From: Afipia felis
GTDB taxonomy: Bacteria > Pseudomonadota > Alphaproteobacteria > Caulobacterales > Caulobacteraceae
DNA length: 64,000 bases
Reading direction: 5' to 3'
Assembly (NCBI GenBank): GCA_943371835.1
Contig: CALRWJ020000007.1
Coordinates: 42,564-106,563 of the forward strand
Shown: piece by piece, positions 6,060 through 53,887 of the stretch
Numbering within the stretch: position 1 is the first letter of the stretch
How the letters are laid out: every line of letters starts with the position of its first letter
Notes under the pieces: model-generated
Told to the model about the DNA's origin: nothing
What the model saw: only the letters and a program-made list of their open reading frames with translations
Databases searched by the model: none
Translations under genes and position numbers: made by a program

Positions 6060-7073
6060 TCAGGGCTCTTCGGACACCCGAACCAGCAGCTTGCCGTCGT
6101 GCGACCCGGTGAACAAGCGGTTCAGGCTGTCGACCGCGCTCTCCAGCCCGTCGTCGACGTGCACCTTCCACTTCACACGGCCGTCGGCCAGCATCGGTCC
6201 CAGGCCGGCCACCATCTCCTTGGCGCGCGGGGCGTAATCCATGACCAGGAAGCCCTGTACGCGCAGGCGGTGCGTGATCAGGCGGCTGAAGTCGGGCGAC
6301 GGCGGGCGGCGCGTGGCGTTGTAGGACGAGATTAGCCCGCACACGGCCATGCGACCGTGGATCTTGAGGCGGTTGAACACCGCCAGCATGATGTCGCCGC
6401 CGACGTTCTCGAAATTCATTTCGACGCCGTCGGGGGCCAGGCGGTCCAGCGCTTCGCCCACGTCCTCGTTCTTGTAGTCGATCGCCGCGTCGAACCCGAG
6501 GTCGTCGGTCAGCCAGCGGCATTTGTCCGGCCCGCCGGCGATGCCGACGACCCGCGCGCCGTGCGCCTTGGCGACCTGACCGGCGATCGAGCCGACCGCG
6601 CCCGCCGCGGCGGAGACGACGATCGTCTCGCCGGCCCTGGGCTGCAGCACGTCGGTGACGCCGAACCAGGCCGTCATGCCCGTCATGCCCATGACCGACA
6701 TGTTGGCCGTCAGCGGCAGGCCCGGCACACGGTGCACCCGCGAGGCGGCGCCGGCGTCGATCACCGCCCTGTCGGCCCAGCCCCCCGCCGCCGTGGTGAC
6801 CACGTCCCCGACGGCGAAGCGATCCGACCGGCTTTCCTCGACCACGCCCAGCGTGAGGCCGCGCATCACGTCGCCCAGGCCGACGGGCGGCAGATAGCCT
6901 TGGACGTCGTTCATCCAGGTGCGGTTGGTGGGGTCCAGCGACAAATAGACCGTGCGCACCTTGATCTGGCCCTCGCCGACGTCGGCCAGCGGGGCCTCGA
7001 CCAGTTCCAGATCGCCGTCCTGGATCAGGCCCTGCGGTCGGCGGCGAAGAACCCACTGGCGGCTGACGGACAT
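6060..7073 (-). CDS. NADP-dependent oxidoreductase, medium-chain dehydrogenase/reductase family (YncB/CurA/PTGR-like)
   Basis: MTAWFG...AAAGAVGSIAGQVAK nucleotide-binding motif; C-terminal LFTGSHDGKLLVRV. Confidence 0.85.
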   Translation of the reverse strand: MSVSRQWVLRRRPQGLIQDGDLELVEAPLADVGEGQIKVRTVYLSLDPTNRTWMNDVQGYLPPVGLGDVMRGLTLGVVEESRSDRFAVGDVVTTAAGGWADRAVIDAGAASRVHRVPGLPLTANMSVMGMTGMTAWFGVTDVLQPRAGETIVVSAAAGAVGSIAGQVAKAHGARVVGIAGGPDKCRWLTDDLGFDAAIDYKNEDVGEALDRLAPDGVEMNFENVGGDIMLAVFNRLKIHGRMAVCGLISSYNATRRPPSPDFSRLITHRLRVQGFLVMDYAPRAKEMVAGLGPMLADGRVKWKVHVDDGLESAVDSLNRLFTGSHDGKLLVRVSEEP

Positions 7074-7133
7074 GGCGCGCTCCCTGCGTTGCGTTTCGGA
7101 ACGGACCTTAGCTCTTGCGGGACGCGGCGCAAG

Positions 7134-7250
7134 AAAAAGGCGGGACCGTTTCCGGTCCCGCCAAGGGTCGCATCATCGAGAATGAGGTGCGGAGGCGACA
7201 GACCGGATCGCTCCGGTCTCGTGTCGGGGGGGCGTCGCCGCCTCCGCAAA
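7134..7250 (-). ncRNA. candidate small RNA (GsrN-like) between two terminators downstream of phyR
   Basis: - strand shows a long stem GCGGAGG(CGG)CGAC...GUCGCCUCCGC that encloses a C7 tract and a perfect 8-bp hairpin AGACCGGA-GCGA-UCCGGUCU. A 10-bp GC terminator hairpin (7139-7162) plus U5 follows. A near-consensus EcfG promoter lies upstream. Confidence 0.4.
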
Positions 7251-7255
7251 TCGAA

Positions 7256-7280
7256 AATGCCCGGGCGCGAAAGCCGTTCC
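7256..7280 (-). promoter_or_regulatory. near-consensus sigma-EcfG promoter (candidate) for the putative sRNA
   Basis: - strand reads GGAAC-N16-CATT, one mismatch to GGAAC-N16-CGTT. It is embedded in the loop and 3' side of the phyR terminator, so it may be coincidental. Confidence 0.3.
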
Positions 7281-7300
7281 CGCCCCGGGCGTTTTTTTTT
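7259..7300. terminator. bidirectional intrinsic terminator at phyR 3' end
   Basis: Hairpin GCCCGGGCG...CGCCCCGGGC flanked by AAAAT on the 5' side and T9 on the 3' side. On the - strand it directly follows the phyR TAA stop. Confidence 0.7.
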
Positions 7301-8087
7301 ACGCCGCCTCTTTCTGGCGCGTCGGGTGGAAGAACAGCGCCTGGCTGATCGCCGCCTTCACCGTCTCCGGCTGGAAGGGCTTGGTGATCAGGAAGGTCGG
7401 CTCCGGGCGCTCGCCGGTCAGCAGGCGCTCGGGGAAGGCGGTGATGAAGATCACCGGCACGTCGAAGCGCGTCAGGATGTCCTTGACCGCGTCGATGCCC
7501 GACGAACCGTCGGCCAGCTGGATGTCGGCCAGCACCAGACCCGGACGGTGACGCGCGACGGCGTCCACGGCCTCGTCATGCGTCGTCGCCGTGGCGGTGA
7601 CGCGGTGACCCAGCTCTTTCACCAGGCTTTCGATGTCGGCGGAAATGATGGCTTCGTCCTCGATGATCAGGACGTCGGTGGCCAGCTCGGCGTCGATGTC
7701 GGCCTGAGCCTCGGCGATCAGGCCCTCCACCGAGTGCGGATCGGCGCCCAGGATCTGCGCGGCCTCGGAGGGGGTGAAGCCCTCCAGCGCCGTCAGCAGG
7801 AAGGCCTGCCGCGACTTCGGCGAAATGCGCATCAGGCGGCGACCGGCGTCGTCGTGATCGGTCGGGGTCGGCTCCAGCTGCGCGCCGGTGGTCGACCAGA
7901 TGGCATGGAACACATGATACAGCGCCACGCGCGGCGTCATGTCGGGCGACAGCTGGCGCTCGCCGGCGGCCAAGGCCTCCAGCGCGACGCGGACGTAGTT
8001 GTCGCCCGTGGCTTGATCGCCCGTCAGGGCGCGGGCGTAGCGGCGGACGTAAGGCAGGTGCGGCGCGAGTCTGGCCAGAAGGCTCAT
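7299..8087 (-). CDS. phyR: PhyR, anti-anti-sigma response regulator of the general stress response
   Basis: N-terminal sigma-like domain (LPYVRRYARALTGDQ..., FLLTALEGFTPSEAAQILG) plus a C-terminal receiver (VLIIEDE..., LVLADIQLADGSSG, FITAFPE). Confidence 0.95.
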   Translation of the reverse strand: MSLLARLAPHLPYVRRYARALTGDQATGDNYVRVALEALAAGERQLSPDMTPRVALYHVFHAIWSTTGAQLEPTPTDHDDAGRRLMRISPKSRQAFLLTALEGFTPSEAAQILGADPHSVEGLIAEAQADIDAELATDVLIIEDEAIISADIESLVKELGHRVTATATTHDEAVDAVARHRPGLVLADIQLADGSSGIDAVKDILTRFDVPVIFITAFPERLLTGERPEPTFLITKPFQPETVKAAISQALFFHPTRQKEAA

Positions 8088-8148
8088 TTTCGTAGGGTCC
8101 CGACGATGGAGGCCCCGCCTCTTTCGACGGAGCGTTGCGATCCAACTC

Positions 8149-8173
8149 AACGTCGCGGAACGGCCACGGTTCC
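8149..8173 (-). promoter_or_regulatory. sigma-EcfG (SigT) promoter of phyR
   Basis: - strand shows a perfect GGAAC-N16-CGTT (GGAAC CGTGGCCGTTCCGCGA CGTT), 62 nt upstream of the phyR ATG. Confidence 0.8.
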
Positions 8174-8213
8174 GCCGGGAAGATTGAGAAATGGAGATTT
8201 CCCGACGCTCTCC

Positions 8214-8238
8214 GGAACCGCAGGGGGCACGCCACGTT
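8214..8238 (+). promoter_or_regulatory. sigma-EcfG (SigT) promoter of nepR-sigT-phyK
   Basis: Perfect GGAAC-N16-CGTT (GGAAC CGCAGGGGGCACGCCA CGTT), 26 nt upstream of the nepR ATG. Confidence 0.85.
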
Positions 8239-8264
8239 GAGGCGGTTCGGAATGGGGCGGCGCG

Positions 8265-8483
8265 ATGCCGAAAGACATGAGCGAAGAACAAGGCGCACCG
8301 CGAAAACGCGGGGACACGGCGCGGAAGGAACCCAAGTTGGAAGAGGCCCGACTGCGTCAGCAGGCCATCGGCGTGCGTCTGCGTCACATGTTCGAGGAAG
8401 TCGTGAACGAGCCCGTTCCCGACGACTTCCTGGACATCCTGCGTCGTGCCGATTCCAAGGGCTCCGAGGGCGGCAAATCGTGA
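8265..8483 (+). CDS. nepR: NepR anti-sigma factor
   Basis: 72 aa with the conserved core IGVRLRHMFEEVVNEPVPDDFLDILRR. It sits immediately upstream of, and overlaps, the ECF sigma gene. Confidence 0.9.
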   Translation: MPKDMSEEQGAPRKRGDTARKEPKLEEARLRQQAIGVRLRHMFEEVVNEPVPDDFLDILRRADSKGSEGGKS

Positions 8484-9085
8484 GGGGCTCCACCGCGCCC
8501 AAGCCCCCTTCCAGCGACGACGACGCGTTCAAGGCCCAGTTGGTAACCTTGATCCCGCATCTTCGGGCGTTCGCGCGCACGCTGACGGGCGACGCCACCG
8601 CCGCCGACGACCTGGCGCAGGACGCCCTGATGAAGGCGTGGGACGCCCGCGCCAGCTATCAGATGGGCACCAACATGAAGGCCTGGACCTTCATGATCCT
8701 GCGCAACCAGTTCTATTCGGAAAAACGCCGCTCGTGGCGCCAGTCCCAGCTTGACCAGGAGGCGGCCGAGCGCACCCTGGTGGCCGTGGACGATCCGGAG
8801 GCGCCCGTCGCCCTGGATGAACTGCGTCAGGCGCTGGATTCGCTTCCGGCCGAACAGCGCGAGGCGCTGATCCTGGTGGGCGCGGGCGGTTTCGCCTATG
8901 AAGAGGCCGCCGAGATCTGCCAGTGCGCCGTGGGCACTGTGAAGAGCCGCGTGTCGCGCGCCCGCCGGTCGCTGCTCGGCATTCTGGAAAGCGGCGGGTA
9001 CGCCCGCGACGGGCGCGCCGCCGGCGACGCCATGCGCTCCATCCTCGCCGACGCCGACCGCCTGAGCGGCCCGCTGCGGTCCTGA
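8480..9085 (+). CDS. sigT: EcfG-type ECF sigma factor (SigT)
   Basis: Region 2 DLAQDALMKAW...AWTFMILRNQFYS; region 4 REALILVGAGGFAYEEAAEICQCAVGTVKSRVSRAR. The GTG start overlaps the nepR stop (GTGA). Confidence 0.9.
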   Translation: MRGSTAPKPPSSDDDAFKAQLVTLIPHLRAFARTLTGDATAADDLAQDALMKAWDARASYQMGTNMKAWTFMILRNQFYSEKRRSWRQSQLDQEAAERTLVAVDDPEAPVALDELRQALDSLPAEQREALILVGAGGFAYEEAAEICQCAVGTVKSRVSRARRSLLGILESGGYARDGRAAGDAMRSILADADRLSGPLRS

Positions 9086-9089
9086 GCGC

Positions 9090-10757
9090 GTGAGGGCGCG
9101 CGGCAGACTGTTCCGACGCGGGCTGCGCCCGCGGTTTCAGGGCATCCGCTTCCGCCTGGGCGTGTCCATGGCGGTGGCCCTGCTGCCGTTTCTGATCCTG
9201 AGCGCCTTCCAGCTGCAGGCCGAATTCCGCGATCAGGCCGATCAACGCCGCGAGATGCTGCGTCTGGCGGCCGAGCGCAGCGTGGCGGACCAGCAGGGGC
9301 GCGTGCGGTCCACCGCCGCCCTGCTCGAACTGCTGGCGCTGGAAGGCACGGGTCCGGACTGCGGGGCGCGCCTGAACGCCGTGGACGACCGGCTGCGCAT
9401 CTATGACGGCCTGGCCCGCTATTCGGCCGACGGACGGCTGCTGTGCGGGTCGCGCGGCGCGGCGCCGGTCGGCGGCTGGATCGACGACCTGCGCGCGGGA
9501 CGCCGCGTGGTCGCCGCGCCGACCGGCGACGGCACGGCCGGCGTGCTGATCGCCCTGCGGCTCGAGCGGCCCCCGGGCGCCTTCGACGGCGCGACCGCCG
9601 TGATCGTGCCTCTGCGCGAGCTTCTGCCGCGCCGCGACATCCGCAGCCTGCCGGAAGGAGCCGAGGCGGCCCTGACCACAGCCGACGGACGCATTCTGGC
9701 CAGCACGGACGCCGGCGCCTTCGCCGACGCCCCGGCCCTCCAGCCGCCGCCCGCCGACACCGGTCAGGCCGCGCTGGTCGAGCGCGGGGGCCACGTCTTC
9801 GTCAAGGCGTCGCTGATCGACGGCGAGTTGCACGTCCTCTATTCCGCGCCGTCGCCGGGACTGTTGTCCTGGGCGCGGCTGAACCCGATCGGCGCCCTGC
9901 TTCTGCCTCTCGGCGTCTGGCTGGCGGCCTTCGTGGCGGTGATGCTGCTGTCGGAGCGGTTCGTCATCCGGTGGCTGGACTATCTTCAGAGGGTCGCCGC
10001 CATCCACGCGCGGGGCCGCCTGTCGGTGCGCCCGGTCCAGGCGGCCGCCGCGCCGACCGAAATCCGCACCCTGGCCCGCACGCTGGACGACCTGGCCGAG
10101 GGCGTCACCACCCGCGACCAGTCGCTGATCGAGGCGCTGGAGGAAAAGGACGCGCTGATGCGCGAGATCCACCACCGGGTGAAGAACAACCTGCAGATCA
10201 TCTCCTCGCTGCTGAGCATGCAGCAGCGCAGCGTCGAGGACGCCTCGGCCAAGGCGGCGCTGGGCGACACGCGCCAGCGGATTTCGGCGCTGGCCCTGAT
10301 CTATCGCACGCTCTACCAGGCCGAGGACCTGGGCCGGGCGGACATGAAGGACTTCCTGAACGCCCTGGTCGGCCAGATGGTCGCCGATCAGGCCGGGCGC
10401 GGGCAGGTGATCGAAAGCTCGGTCCAGGCCGATTCCCTGATCGTCGATCCCGACAAGCTGGCGCCCATGGCGCTGTGGCTGGTCGAGGCCGTGTCGAACG
10501 CCCAGAAGCACGCCTTCCCGTACGGGGGCCGCACCCTGGCCGTGCGGTTCAGCGTCGACGGCGACGCCAGCGTGCTGGAGGTCGAGGACGACGGCCCGGG
10601 CCTGACGCCCGACGCGTCCACCGGCGTGGGACGCACGCTGATGTCGGCCTTCGCCAAGCAGCTGCGCGGCGAGACGCAGATCACGTCCGGACCCATGGGC
10701 GGCGTGCTGATCCGCATGACCTTCCTGACGCCCGGCGAGACCCACGCGGCGCCCTAG
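9090..10757 (+). CDS. phyK: HWE/HisKA_2 sensor histidine kinase (PhyK-like)
   Basis: Two TM segments flank a periplasmic domain. H-box REIHHRVKNNLQIISSLLSMQ; HATPase with AVSNAQKHAF and DDGPGL. Position downstream of sigT matches Caulobacter phyK. Start uncertain (alternative ATG 9168). Confidence 0.8.
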   Translation: MRARGRLFRRGLRPRFQGIRFRLGVSMAVALLPFLILSAFQLQAEFRDQADQRREMLRLAAERSVADQQGRVRSTAALLELLALEGTGPDCGARLNAVDDRLRIYDGLARYSADGRLLCGSRGAAPVGGWIDDLRAGRRVVAAPTGDGTAGVLIALRLERPPGAFDGATAVIVPLRELLPRRDIRSLPEGAEAALTTADGRILASTDAGAFADAPALQPPPADTGQAALVERGGHVFVKASLIDGELHVLYSAPSPGLLSWARLNPIGALLLPLGVWLAAFVAVMLLSERFVIRWLDYLQRVAAIHARGRLSVRPVQAAAAPTEIRTLARTLDDLAEGVTTRDQSLIEALEEKDALMREIHHRVKNNLQIISSLLSMQQRSVEDASAKAALGDTRQRISALALIYRTLYQAEDLGRADMKDFLNALVGQMVADQAGRGQVIESSVQADSLIVDPDKLAPMALWLVEAVSNAQKHAFPYGGRTLAVRFSVDGDASVLEVEDDGPGLTPDASTGVGRTLMSAFAKQLRGETQITSGPMGGVLIRMTFLTPGETHAAP

Positions 10758-10782
10758 GGAACCGCCGGTCACTGACCACGTT
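10758..10782 (+). promoter_or_regulatory. sigma-EcfG promoter of the entericidin-like gene
   Basis: Perfect GGAAC-N16-CGTT (GGAAC CGCCGGTCACTGACCA CGTT), 33 nt upstream of ATG 10816. Confidence 0.8.
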
Positions 10783-10815: not shown

Positions 10816-10953
10816 ATGCGCAAGATCTTCGTCATTCTGAGCGCCGCCGCCGCCCTGACGACGGCCGCGTGCAACACCGTCGCCGGCGTCGGCCGCGACG
10901 CCTCGGCCGCCGGCAACGCCGTCACCGGCGCGGCGGAAGACGCCAAGAACTGA
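10816..10953 (+). CDS. entericidin EcnA/B-family small lipoprotein (45 aa; not in the supplied ORF track)
   Basis: Translation MRKIFVILSAAAALTTAACNTVAGVGRDASAAGNAVTGAAEDAKN has a lipobox LTTAAC followed by NT.AG.G.D. High GC3. Confidence 0.75.
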   Translation: MRKIFVILSAAAALTTAACNTVAGVGRDASAAGNAVTGAAEDAKN

Positions 10954-52587: not shown

Positions 52588-53802
52588 TCACCGGCCCGCC
52601 TCGACCACGCGGCGCACGTCGGCGGCGATCGGCAGGCGCTTTCTGGCGCGTTCGTCCAGGTCGCGCGCCATGTCCCGGGCGGGACGGACGAAGCGCGCGT
52701 CGCTCGCCAGCGAGGCCAGCGCCTTCTTCAGCCGCACCATCACGGCCACGTCGCCCGCGCCGTAGCGCGCCACCGGCCCGAACACGTCGTCCATGAGGTC
52801 GGCTTCCTGGATCGCAGGCCAGAACACGCGGTCATAGCGTACGCCCTCCTCCGCCTCCCGCCGCGACCATTCGTCCAGCAGGCGCACCCCCGAGCCGATC
52901 ACCTGGATCGCCGTGCCCGGGTCGTTGATCCCCGGCGACAGCGCCTTGGCCGCGATCTCTCCCAGCACGATCAGGCCATAGCGCGGGTCCTGGTCGAACG
53001 AGCGGGAACCGCCGACCGAGAACGCCGCCCGCACCTCCTTCAGCCGATCCTCGTCGCAGGCGTGATCAACTCGGGCCAGCGCCTCGCCCCGCCTGACGAA
53101 GGCGCCGGGCGGGGCCAGCACCTGGATGCGGAACCCGCCGGCCTCGGCCTGATCCTGCAGACGATCGACGTCGACGTTCTGGACGCTGCCGGTGCGCGTC
53201 GCCGGCACCTCCTGTCCGCCGCGCACAGTGCCGGAGGCGCACCCCAGTCGCGGCCGCTCCGCGCGATCCAGCAGCGCGTGGCGCGCCTGGTCCTCGACAA
53301 GGTCGACCATGTGGCCCACGCGCGCCAGGCTGGACAGACGGTTGATCCACGCCAGCAGGCGGAACGCCACGATCGCGACCACGACCAGGCTGCAGAAGAA
53401 CAGGATCGCCCGTCCGCCTTCGCCGTAATAGCGGGCGTTGATCGCCGTGACCGCCACGATGGCGTAAAGGAAGGCCCCGACGAAGGTCGACAGCGACTTC
53501 TGCGTTTCGCCGTCCGACGTCACCAGCGCCGCCACGCGCGGCGTCGCCTGCGCCGACACCGCCGTATAGGCCGTCACCATCGCCCCGACCGAGAACGTCG
53601 CCACCGCCAGCAGGCTGGAGGCCAGGATGGTCAGAATCTCCTCGACCGACTCCCCGCCGAAGCGATCGGCGATCTCGGGCGGCGGCAGCGGCGCGGCGAC
53701 GGCGGCCAGCAGCGCCGCCCCCACGCCCAGCGCGGCATAGGCGCCGGCACGGACCCAGAGCTCCCGCACCAGTCGTCGCCACAGAAATCGCCAGCGGTTC
53801 AT
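52588..53802 (-). CDS. DUF2254 family membrane protein
   Basis: N-terminal 4-TM region plus a soluble C-terminal domain ([15 protein letters not shown] is typical of DUF2254). Confidence 0.7.
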
Positions 53803-53887
53803 GCGCCCCCCTTCATGGACCGAACACGGAACGCTTCAGGCCCCGCCGGGGTTCGGCGGGCGGTCGGCCCAGAAAAAACCGCTTTAC

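Follow-up and report, generated by a model that had tools for sequence, protein, structure and literature searches.

The closest described relative of the element considered here is GsrN (CCNA_R0081) of Caulobacter crescentus, a small RNA (sRNA) that is 106 nt long and appears at ~100 nt on Northern blots (Tien et al. 2018, eLife 7:e33684, PMC5869019). The C. crescentus gene is not linked to phyR and has a sigma-T promoter of its own; primer extension confirmed the annotated start, a G that has a homologous position in the sequence described below. GsrN acts in trans, as it complements from an ectopic locus, and it requires a C-rich loop, in which six tandem C pair with the katG and osrP leaders. 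Cleavage was mapped at C53/T54, the 5' half alone, which lacks the terminator, suffices for function, and the loop of the internal hairpin tolerated a PP7 insertion at nt 37. Some of the predicted target interactions use an exposed 3' region, which matches the linker of the element studied here. Homologues of gsrN are usually found beside ecfG, nepR and phyR, with Brevundimonas named in this context, and Fig. 9 of the same paper presents gsrN genes predicted by BLASTn near ecfG/nepR/phyR in Brevundimonas and Phenylobacterium, with the C-rich loop as their most conserved part (PMC5869019). Here, we analyse the homologous element in a stretch of 64,000 nt deposited as Afipia felis (assembly GCA_943371835.1, contig CALRWJ020000007.1, positions 42,564 to 106,563; hereafter the window), where it lies in the gap between phyR and the next gene.

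The original prediction, which was made from the sequence alone, had placed a GsrN-like, EcfG-dependent sRNA in this gap. Our analysis supports this proposal, and we conclude with high confidence that the gap encodes the gsrN of Brevundimonas, i.e. an independent non-coding sRNA gene with its own EcfG (sigma-T)-type promoter. The conclusion is carried by homology, a covarying structure, promoter conservation and synteny, all of which are direct observations on the window and its relatives. The precedent that had been given for the prediction is largely borne out by the literature: the C-rich loop pairs with G-rich leaders, and adjacency of GsrN-like genes to ecfG/nepR/phyR is stated in PMC5869019; only the stated length of ~110 nt has to be corrected to the published 106 nt. 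The element is already known in kind and genus, because Tien et al. 2018 (PMC5869019) reported a BLASTn-detectable Brevundimonas gsrN near the locus of the general stress response (GSR).

Homology to GsrN and RNA structure

A single Rfam match is found in the whole window. It assigns positions 7245..7139 (-) to family RF01529 ('CC3552', a Caulobacter sRNA family) with 86.7 bits (gathering score 50) and E = 1.6e-12, and it spans the covariance model over its full length (positions 1-106 of 106). The consensus of RF01529 has 86 of 108 positions in common with GsrN, and over the first 60 nt from the 5' end the two hardly differ. For a direct comparison, the 106-nt C. crescentus GsrN was rebuilt together with its promoter from gBlock G003 in supplementary file 1 of PMC5869019, which holds gBlocks of wild-type CCNA_R0081 (gsrN) and RNA-numbered probes, including the 'Landt probe'. 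The window sequence aligns with this published GsrN from end to end, with 78 of 110 columns identical (~71 %).

The predicted RNA is highly structured. Positions 7248..7134 (-) fold with a minimum free energy (MFE) of -62.3 kcal/mol (z = -6.4), and none of 200 shuffled sequences was as stable. A closing stem P1 of 11-12 bp (GCGGAGGCGGC/GUCGCCUCCGC) surrounds the C-tract and an internal hairpin and is followed by a linker and a terminator:

7134..7247 (-): predicted GsrN orthologue, primary transcript of ~112-114 nt (Rfam, alignment, fold, covariation)
7237..7247 (-): 5' arm of P1 (99.3 % paired, nearly invariant; compensatory singletons A-U in C. crescentus and G-C in L040)
7226..7232 (-): C7 tract, predicted target-recognition loop (largely unpaired)
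7200..7219 (-): internal perfect 8-bp hairpin with a GCGA loop (fold; compensatory changes at 6 of 6 alignable pairs)
7189..7199 (-): 3' arm of P1, with a putative endonucleolytic processing site at ~7193-7194 (predicted pairing; site by homology)
7163..7188 (-): linker ACCUCAUUCUCGAUGAUGCGACCCUU, second partly single-stranded region (base-pair probabilities)
7134..7162 (-): intrinsic terminator with a 10-bp stem (9 G-C), a GAAA loop and U5 (terminator scan; pair probabilities ~1.0)

The terminator stem occupies 7162..7139 (-), and U5 follows at 7138..7134. In the C7 tract, the unpaired probability is 0.88-0.97 for six of the seven C and 0.48 for the last one. The long stem, the unpaired C7, the perfect 8-bp hairpin and the 10-bp terminator with U5 had all been read from the sequence before, and the computed fold agrees with each of them. 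Thus, the GsrN architecture with an unpaired C-tract is recovered by the MFE and centroid folds as well as by the RNAalifold consensus and covariation.

The comparative evidence derives from a scan of a species-representative genome collection with a degenerate 24-mer taken from the linker and the P1 3' arm, which matched at least 119 loci. Six chance matches from unrelated phyla (L004, L005, L007, L020, L028, L118) and one divergent sequence (L109) were dropped, and 108 homologues were kept among the matches listed, i.e. 109 sequences with the window and 110 with C. crescentus. The listed homologues are nearly all from Brevundimonas or unclassified Caulobacterales; no Caulobacter or Phenylobacterium locus is among the matches listed for this linker-pattern scan. 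The nearest relatives of the window among the matches listed share only ~84-85 % identity over 6 kb, and therefore its species itself is not among them. In the excluded L109, from a Brevundimonas metagenome-assembled genome (MAG), the 5' half is divergent and contains no more than a C4 tract; the C-tract filter removed this sequence. The contig of L009 is labelled as a MAG of Rhizobium sp. Q54, yet its gsrN and oxidoreductase (79 % identity) are of the Brevundimonas type, which points to mis-binning.

RNAalifold returned the same architecture for the 110 sequences including C. crescentus, with compensatory double changes at 16 of the 32 pairs. Pairing was retained in 98.4 % of the cells, compared with 30-57 % when the partners were slid by 1-3 columns, and double changes were counted in 246 cells as opposed to 44 +/- 7 in shuffled alignments, none of which reached 246 in 500 attempts. 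The covariation signal, which the original prediction had proposed to look for, is therefore strong against both controls. Compensatory changes were found at 8 of 9 terminator pairs. In contrast to this, the closing stem is almost invariant (two compensatory singletons) and a small hairpin in the linker shows no variation at all; as both overlap the search pattern, their invariance counts neither for nor against the structure. The C-tract retains an invariant core of five C in alignment A1, and its length ranges from 5 to 9 nt across the homologues. Hence, the C-tract core and the closing stem are the invariant parts, whereas the internal hairpin and the terminator are free to covary.

Mechanically called open reading frames (ORFs) overlap the region on both strands (7025..7249 (-) and 7115..7348 (+)), so that the earlier statement that no ORF lies between the terminators does not hold in the literal sense. 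It stands as far as coding is concerned: each of the three frame classes is well represented among the homologue lengths (42, 39 and 29 sequences) and the C-tract varies in length, which shows that the region is non-coding. A small-protein gene was rejected on the basis of this even spread and of the C-tract of 5-9 nt.

Promoter and position in the GSR locus

The element lies downstream of phyR on the same strand, and the features that lie between the phyR stop codon and the predicted 5' end are the following:

7292..7300 (-): A9 tract upstream of the -35 element, overlapping the phyR stop codon (comparison with homologues)
7276..7280 (-): -35 element GGAAC, EcfG/sigma-T-type (register of the C. 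crescentus gsrN promoter; conservation in homologues)
7256..7259 (-): -10 element CATT, consensus CGTT (16-nt spacer to the -35 element; 8 nt to G7247)
7259..7291 (-): hairpin directly after the phyR stop codon, putative phyR terminator, followed by AUUUUCGAUUU (predicted fold)

The sequence GGGAAC is found in register in the window and in C. crescentus, where the -10 element is CGTT instead of CATT. The distance from the -10 element to the GCG at the 5' end is 8 nt in both sequences, and this GCG is the mapped 5' end of C. crescentus GsrN. Because the -35 element, the -10 element and the GCG are all in register, transcription is predicted to start at G7247 and to end with U5 at 7134, giving an RNA of ~112 nt, with the 5' end placed according to the mapped C. 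crescentus end. The near-consensus promoter GGAAC-N16-CATT (7280..7256), which had been proposed to lie about 8 nt upstream of the 5' end, is thus present and separated from G7247 by exactly 8 nt.

Promoter conservation extends to the entire homologue set. The strict motif GGAAC-N16-C[G/A]TT occurs in 93 of 109 loci, including the window, always with a 16-nt spacer and 78-85 nt upstream of the search-pattern anchor, while the other 16 loci carry one-base variants at the same position (TGTT, GGTT or, in two of them, GCAAC). An EcfG-type promoter in fixed register to the RNA is therefore found in 109 of 109 loci, whatever the distance to phyR (106 to 776 nt). In the 64-kb window, the motif is matched four times compared with 0.59 matches expected, and all four lie within 7256..10782, where they correspond to the promoters of gsrN, phyR, nepR-ecfG and an entericidin-like small ORF. 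The earlier caveat that the promoter match could be coincidental, given that its -35 element falls in the loop of the phyR terminator, can be set aside, since the register is fixed regardless of the phyR distance and the motif is enriched in the GSR locus.

The CATT variant of the -10 element is tolerated in evolution, as judged from the homologues. It occurs in 12 homologous loci (the window, L009, L021, L027, L029, L036, L040, L056, L062, L091, L103 and L105), which comprise most relatives with a short phyR-gsrN gap (L051 has CGTT) and two loci with a long gap. An A run of at least 4 nt is present at the position of the A9 tract in 92 of 109 homologues, and the C. crescentus gsrN promoter has A7. 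This A-rich run, ~12-20 nt upstream of the -35 element in otherwise very GC-rich DNA, is possibly an UP-element-like feature. Apart from a single mismatch in the -10 element, the sequence thus provides a predicted EcfG-type promoter that is properly placed for the RNA 5' end. As far as can be judged from sequence, the predicted orthologue carries every feature by which membership in GsrN/RF01529 can be assessed.

The location of the element is equally characteristic. The following genes adjoin it:

6060..7073 (-): NADP-type oxidoreductase, the next minus-strand gene after phyR (Pfam PF16884 ADH_N_2, PF00107 ADH_zinc_N)
7299..8087 (-): phyR, anti-anti-sigma response regulator of the GSR (Pfam PF22029 PhyR_sigma2, PF22233 PhyR_sigma-like, PF00072 Response_reg)
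8265..8483, divergent from phyR: nepR
8480..9085, divergent from phyR: ecfG, an extracytoplasmic function (ECF) sigma factor
9090..10757, divergent from phyR: HisKA_2 kinase

With the phyR stop codon TAA at 7301..7299 (-) and the start of the oxidoreductase at 7073, the coordinates confirm the predicted gap of 225 nt. Together, phyR, nepR, ecfG and the HisKA_2 kinase represent a canonical alphaproteobacterial GSR locus, and the sRNA therefore lies beside ecfG-nepR-phyR, as is usual for gsrN in Caulobacteraceae other than C. crescentus. The gene order is conserved: phyR is located upstream and on the same strand as the sRNA in nearly all of the 108 listed homologous loci that reach far enough, and in 98 of 109 homologous loci the oxidoreductase is the next gene in the direction of the sRNA and on its strand, at a median distance of 75 nt from the sRNA terminator. 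No second EcfG-type promoter was seen in the spacer between the terminator and the oxidoreductase in the homologous loci; expression of the oxidoreductase may depend on terminator read-through or on an unrecognised promoter.

Further along the locus, the fourth match to the promoter motif has the consensus form GGAAC-N16-CGTT at 10758-10782 (+), just downstream of the HisKA_2 kinase. It is followed by a 45-aa ORF (10816-10953 (+)) with a lipoprotein signal and a near-threshold match to Entericidin EcnA/B (22.7 vs 23.3 bits), which probably encodes a small lipoprotein of the GSR regulon.

Compared to the fixed distance between promoter and RNA, the distance between phyR and gsrN, taken as that between the phyR match end and the search-pattern anchor, is variable and falls into three classes. 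The short-gap class (~106 nt) contains the window and its closest listed relatives. In the medium-gap class (~180-205 nt), a terminator of its own closes phyR and the gsrN promoter follows ~70 nt further on. In the long-gap class (~520-780 nt), phyR and gsrN are separated by a membrane-protein gene of ~120 aa that runs on the opposite strand; 82 loci have this gene, but neither the window nor any short- or medium-gap relative does. Its product is conserved, ~120 aa long and single-pass, without a Pfam match, and it is encoded divergently from gsrN (e.g. L012 4943-5311 (-)). Tandem gsrN copies were rejected as the cause of the long gaps, as each locus has one Rfam match and the gap holds the membrane-protein gene; a single RF01529 copy per locus was found in 18 of 18 Brevundimonas loci tested.

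As no gene separates phyR from gsrN in the sub-clade of the window, the promoter of gsrN falls within the terminator hairpin of phyR. In the window, the distance between the phyR stop codon and the -35 element is only 18 nt. The -35 element is located between the arms of the hairpin, and CATT starts at the last base of the stem and continues into the U-tract. The hairpin is stable, with -24.1 kcal/mol for the 58-nt region that contains it, and in the short-gap relatives L027, L062, L105 and L021 the arms differ in sequence yet still pair. The U-tract is interrupted (AUUUUCGAUUU), and a consensus terminator scan gave no call on the minus strand. Read in the other direction, the hairpin precedes a T9 run and the scan calls a plus-strand terminator at 7275-7305, so that the hairpin looks bidirectional; a plus-strand gene that converges on it was not found in the window. 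The presence of two strong terminators, as claimed before, is thus correct for the second one (7162..7134), whereas the first one is only fair. Specific to this sub-clade are the compact layout, the A9 tract over the phyR stop codon, the hairpin that brackets the -35 element and ends at the -10 element, and the CATT sequence.

The overlap between promoter and terminator could couple the adjacent genes, such that phyR, gsrN and the oxidoreductase form a compact, internally punctuated stress transcription unit instead of three independent genes. We consider such coupling unlikely. If it existed, termination at or read-through of the phyR hairpin could modulate gsrN initiation or add a processed pool of GsrN, and leakage past the GsrN terminator could give the oxidoreductase a stress-dependent expression.

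Proposed function and rival explanations

By homology with C. crescentus, stress would release sigma-EcfG via PhyR and NepR, and gsrN would then be transcribed. The RNA would probably be cleaved in the 3' arm of P1, leaving a stable 5' half of ~50 nt, while the full-length form would be stabilised by Hfq. The C. crescentus cleavage-site sequence GCC|UUCGC is conserved in the window as GCCUCCGC, which makes cleavage at this site a prediction for the window RNA. The exposed C-rich stretch would pair with G-rich 5' leaders, such as those of katG and osrP, and would increase or decrease protein output post-transcriptionally. As in C. crescentus, activation of katG and osrP would constitute a coherent feed-forward loop with the sigma factor. 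For the window RNA, sigma dependence, processing, Hfq stabilisation and targets are all inferred by homology.

A G6 run (GAAGGGGGGCGCATG) at 53803-53811 (-) occupies the Shine-Dalgarno position of ORF 52588-53802 (-), which encodes a predicted membrane protein of 404 aa. This run could pair with 8 nt of the C-loop in GsrN (CGCCCCCC), which makes it a candidate GsrN target. It is one of 12 runs of at least six G in the window, so that the match may be due to chance.

Some observations weigh against the identification of the element as a functional gsrN. The equation of 'CC3552' with GsrN rests on sequence identity and on the Landt 2008 probe; we found no explicit statement that links the two, and the name 'CC3552' is absent from indexed papers. 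The invariance of the linker and of the P1 3' arm is partly circular, because the homologues were selected by a pattern located there. The -10 element CATT lacks the G of the usual (C)GTT core, and its use by sigma-EcfG is a prediction. Regarding targets, a query with the N-terminus encoded by gBlock G020 showed that katG is absent from the 64-kb window. When the window was scanned for duplexes with the C-loop region, nothing rose above background except for the antisense self-match. The other top duplex sites (-30 to -34 kcal/mol) lie within GC-rich coding sequence and are not interpretable.

One alternative is that the RNA lacks a promoter and is a processed 3' untranslated region (UTR) of phyR, which arises when transcription passes a weak phyR terminator and RNases then excise the RNA. 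The compact layout in the window invites this explanation: the -35 element follows the phyR stop codon after 18 nt only, the U-tract of the phyR hairpin is interrupted and the hairpin is not called as a terminator on the minus strand, the -10 element deviates from the consensus, and phyR itself has a consensus EcfG promoter, so that read-through would also be induced by stress. However, the distance between promoter and RNA is fixed in 109 of 109 loci, including the 82 genomes in which an opposite-strand gene intervenes, and in the medium-gap class phyR is terminated separately ~70 nt upstream of the promoter. The gsrN of C. crescentus, which lies apart from phyR, starts from its own sigma-T promoter at the homologous G, as determined by primer extension. 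The element differs from a 3'-UTR-derived sRNA by its own conserved promoter, its own terminator and the separate hairpin after phyR. We therefore regard a phyR 3' UTR as the sole origin of the RNA, which the original prediction had offered as an option, as unsupported and very unlikely, although read-through from phyR is conceivable as an additional minor source in the short-gap arrangement.

The conserved oxidoreductase raises a different option, namely that the element acts mainly in cis as a leader or attenuator of this downstream gene and not as a trans-acting sRNA. The synteny on the same strand (98 of 109 loci, at a median of 75 nt after the terminator) is consistent with such a role, and as the spacer contains no second EcfG-type promoter, read-through could provide stress-dependent expression of the enzyme. 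Against this stand a terminator probability of ~1.0 without a competing anti-terminator fold in the ensemble, i.e. the alternative fold expected from an attenuator is missing in spite of the downstream synteny, and the absence of matches to Rfam riboswitch or leader families in the window. The most conserved parts are single-stranded, seed-like regions and not a ligand pocket, and the C. crescentus RNA complements ectopically, with its 5' half sufficient in the absence of the terminator. A predominantly cis-acting element is accordingly highly improbable. Finally, GC-rich genomes fold readily and the EcfG motif is short, with one mismatch to the CGTT consensus here, and two chance terminator-like hairpins next to a chance promoter match could in principle mimic an sRNA gene without any functional RNA. 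The fold z-score of -6.4, the Rfam E-value of 1.6e-12, the covariation against both controls, the enrichment of the motif with all matches inside the GSR locus and the conservation of the element in >100 genomes leave this explanation with practically no probability. An independent gsrN gene remains our preferred reading.

Comparison with known systems

The value of assigning this element is mainly one of annotation, as pipelines that skip Rfam leave the gap empty, although it encodes the post-transcriptional arm of the alphaproteobacterial GSR. The set of 109 homologues also provides a much broader base for the structure and the promoter of GsrN than the few sequences on which the original paper relied. 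The promoter-in-terminator layout and the conserved oxidoreductase neighbour are modest leads on the architecture of the GSR circuit in Brevundimonas, but they do not open a new question.

In comparison with C. crescentus GsrN (CCNA_R0081), the window RNA has the same order of elements, with a closing stem around the C-tract and the internal hairpin, a linker and an intrinsic terminator. Both share the type of promoter, its spacing to the 5' end and the length class (106 nt vs ~112 nt here). They differ in the C-tract (C7 here vs C6), in the -10 element (CATT here vs CGTT) and in the linker (CCUCAUUCUCGAUGAUG here vs CCCCUUUGUUGAUG). While the C. crescentus gene is distal to the GSR locus, gsrN of the window is located directly downstream of phyR. 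It thereby represents one of the Brevundimonas gsrN homologues that were predicted by Tien et al. 2018; the three spacing classes, the intervening membrane-protein gene, the promoter-in-terminator layout and the conserved downstream oxidoreductase are not described in that study. The putative EcfG-dependent, GsrN-like sRNAs of the Rhizobiales (R. etli, S. meliloti, B. abortus) were identified by position and promoter and not by sequence homology (Tien et al. 2018). The window RNA is more than an analogue of this kind, as its sequence is homologous to that of Caulobacter GsrN.

Type I 3'-UTR-derived sRNAs, such as DapZ and MicL in enterobacteria, are transcribed from promoters inside the upstream gene. 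As in these cases, the promoter of the window sRNA overlaps the 3' end region of a same-strand upstream gene. In contrast to DapZ and MicL, the promoter is located past the stop codon, and the sRNA ends at its own terminator and not at that of the mRNA; moreover, most of its relatives have another gene between phyR and the sRNA.

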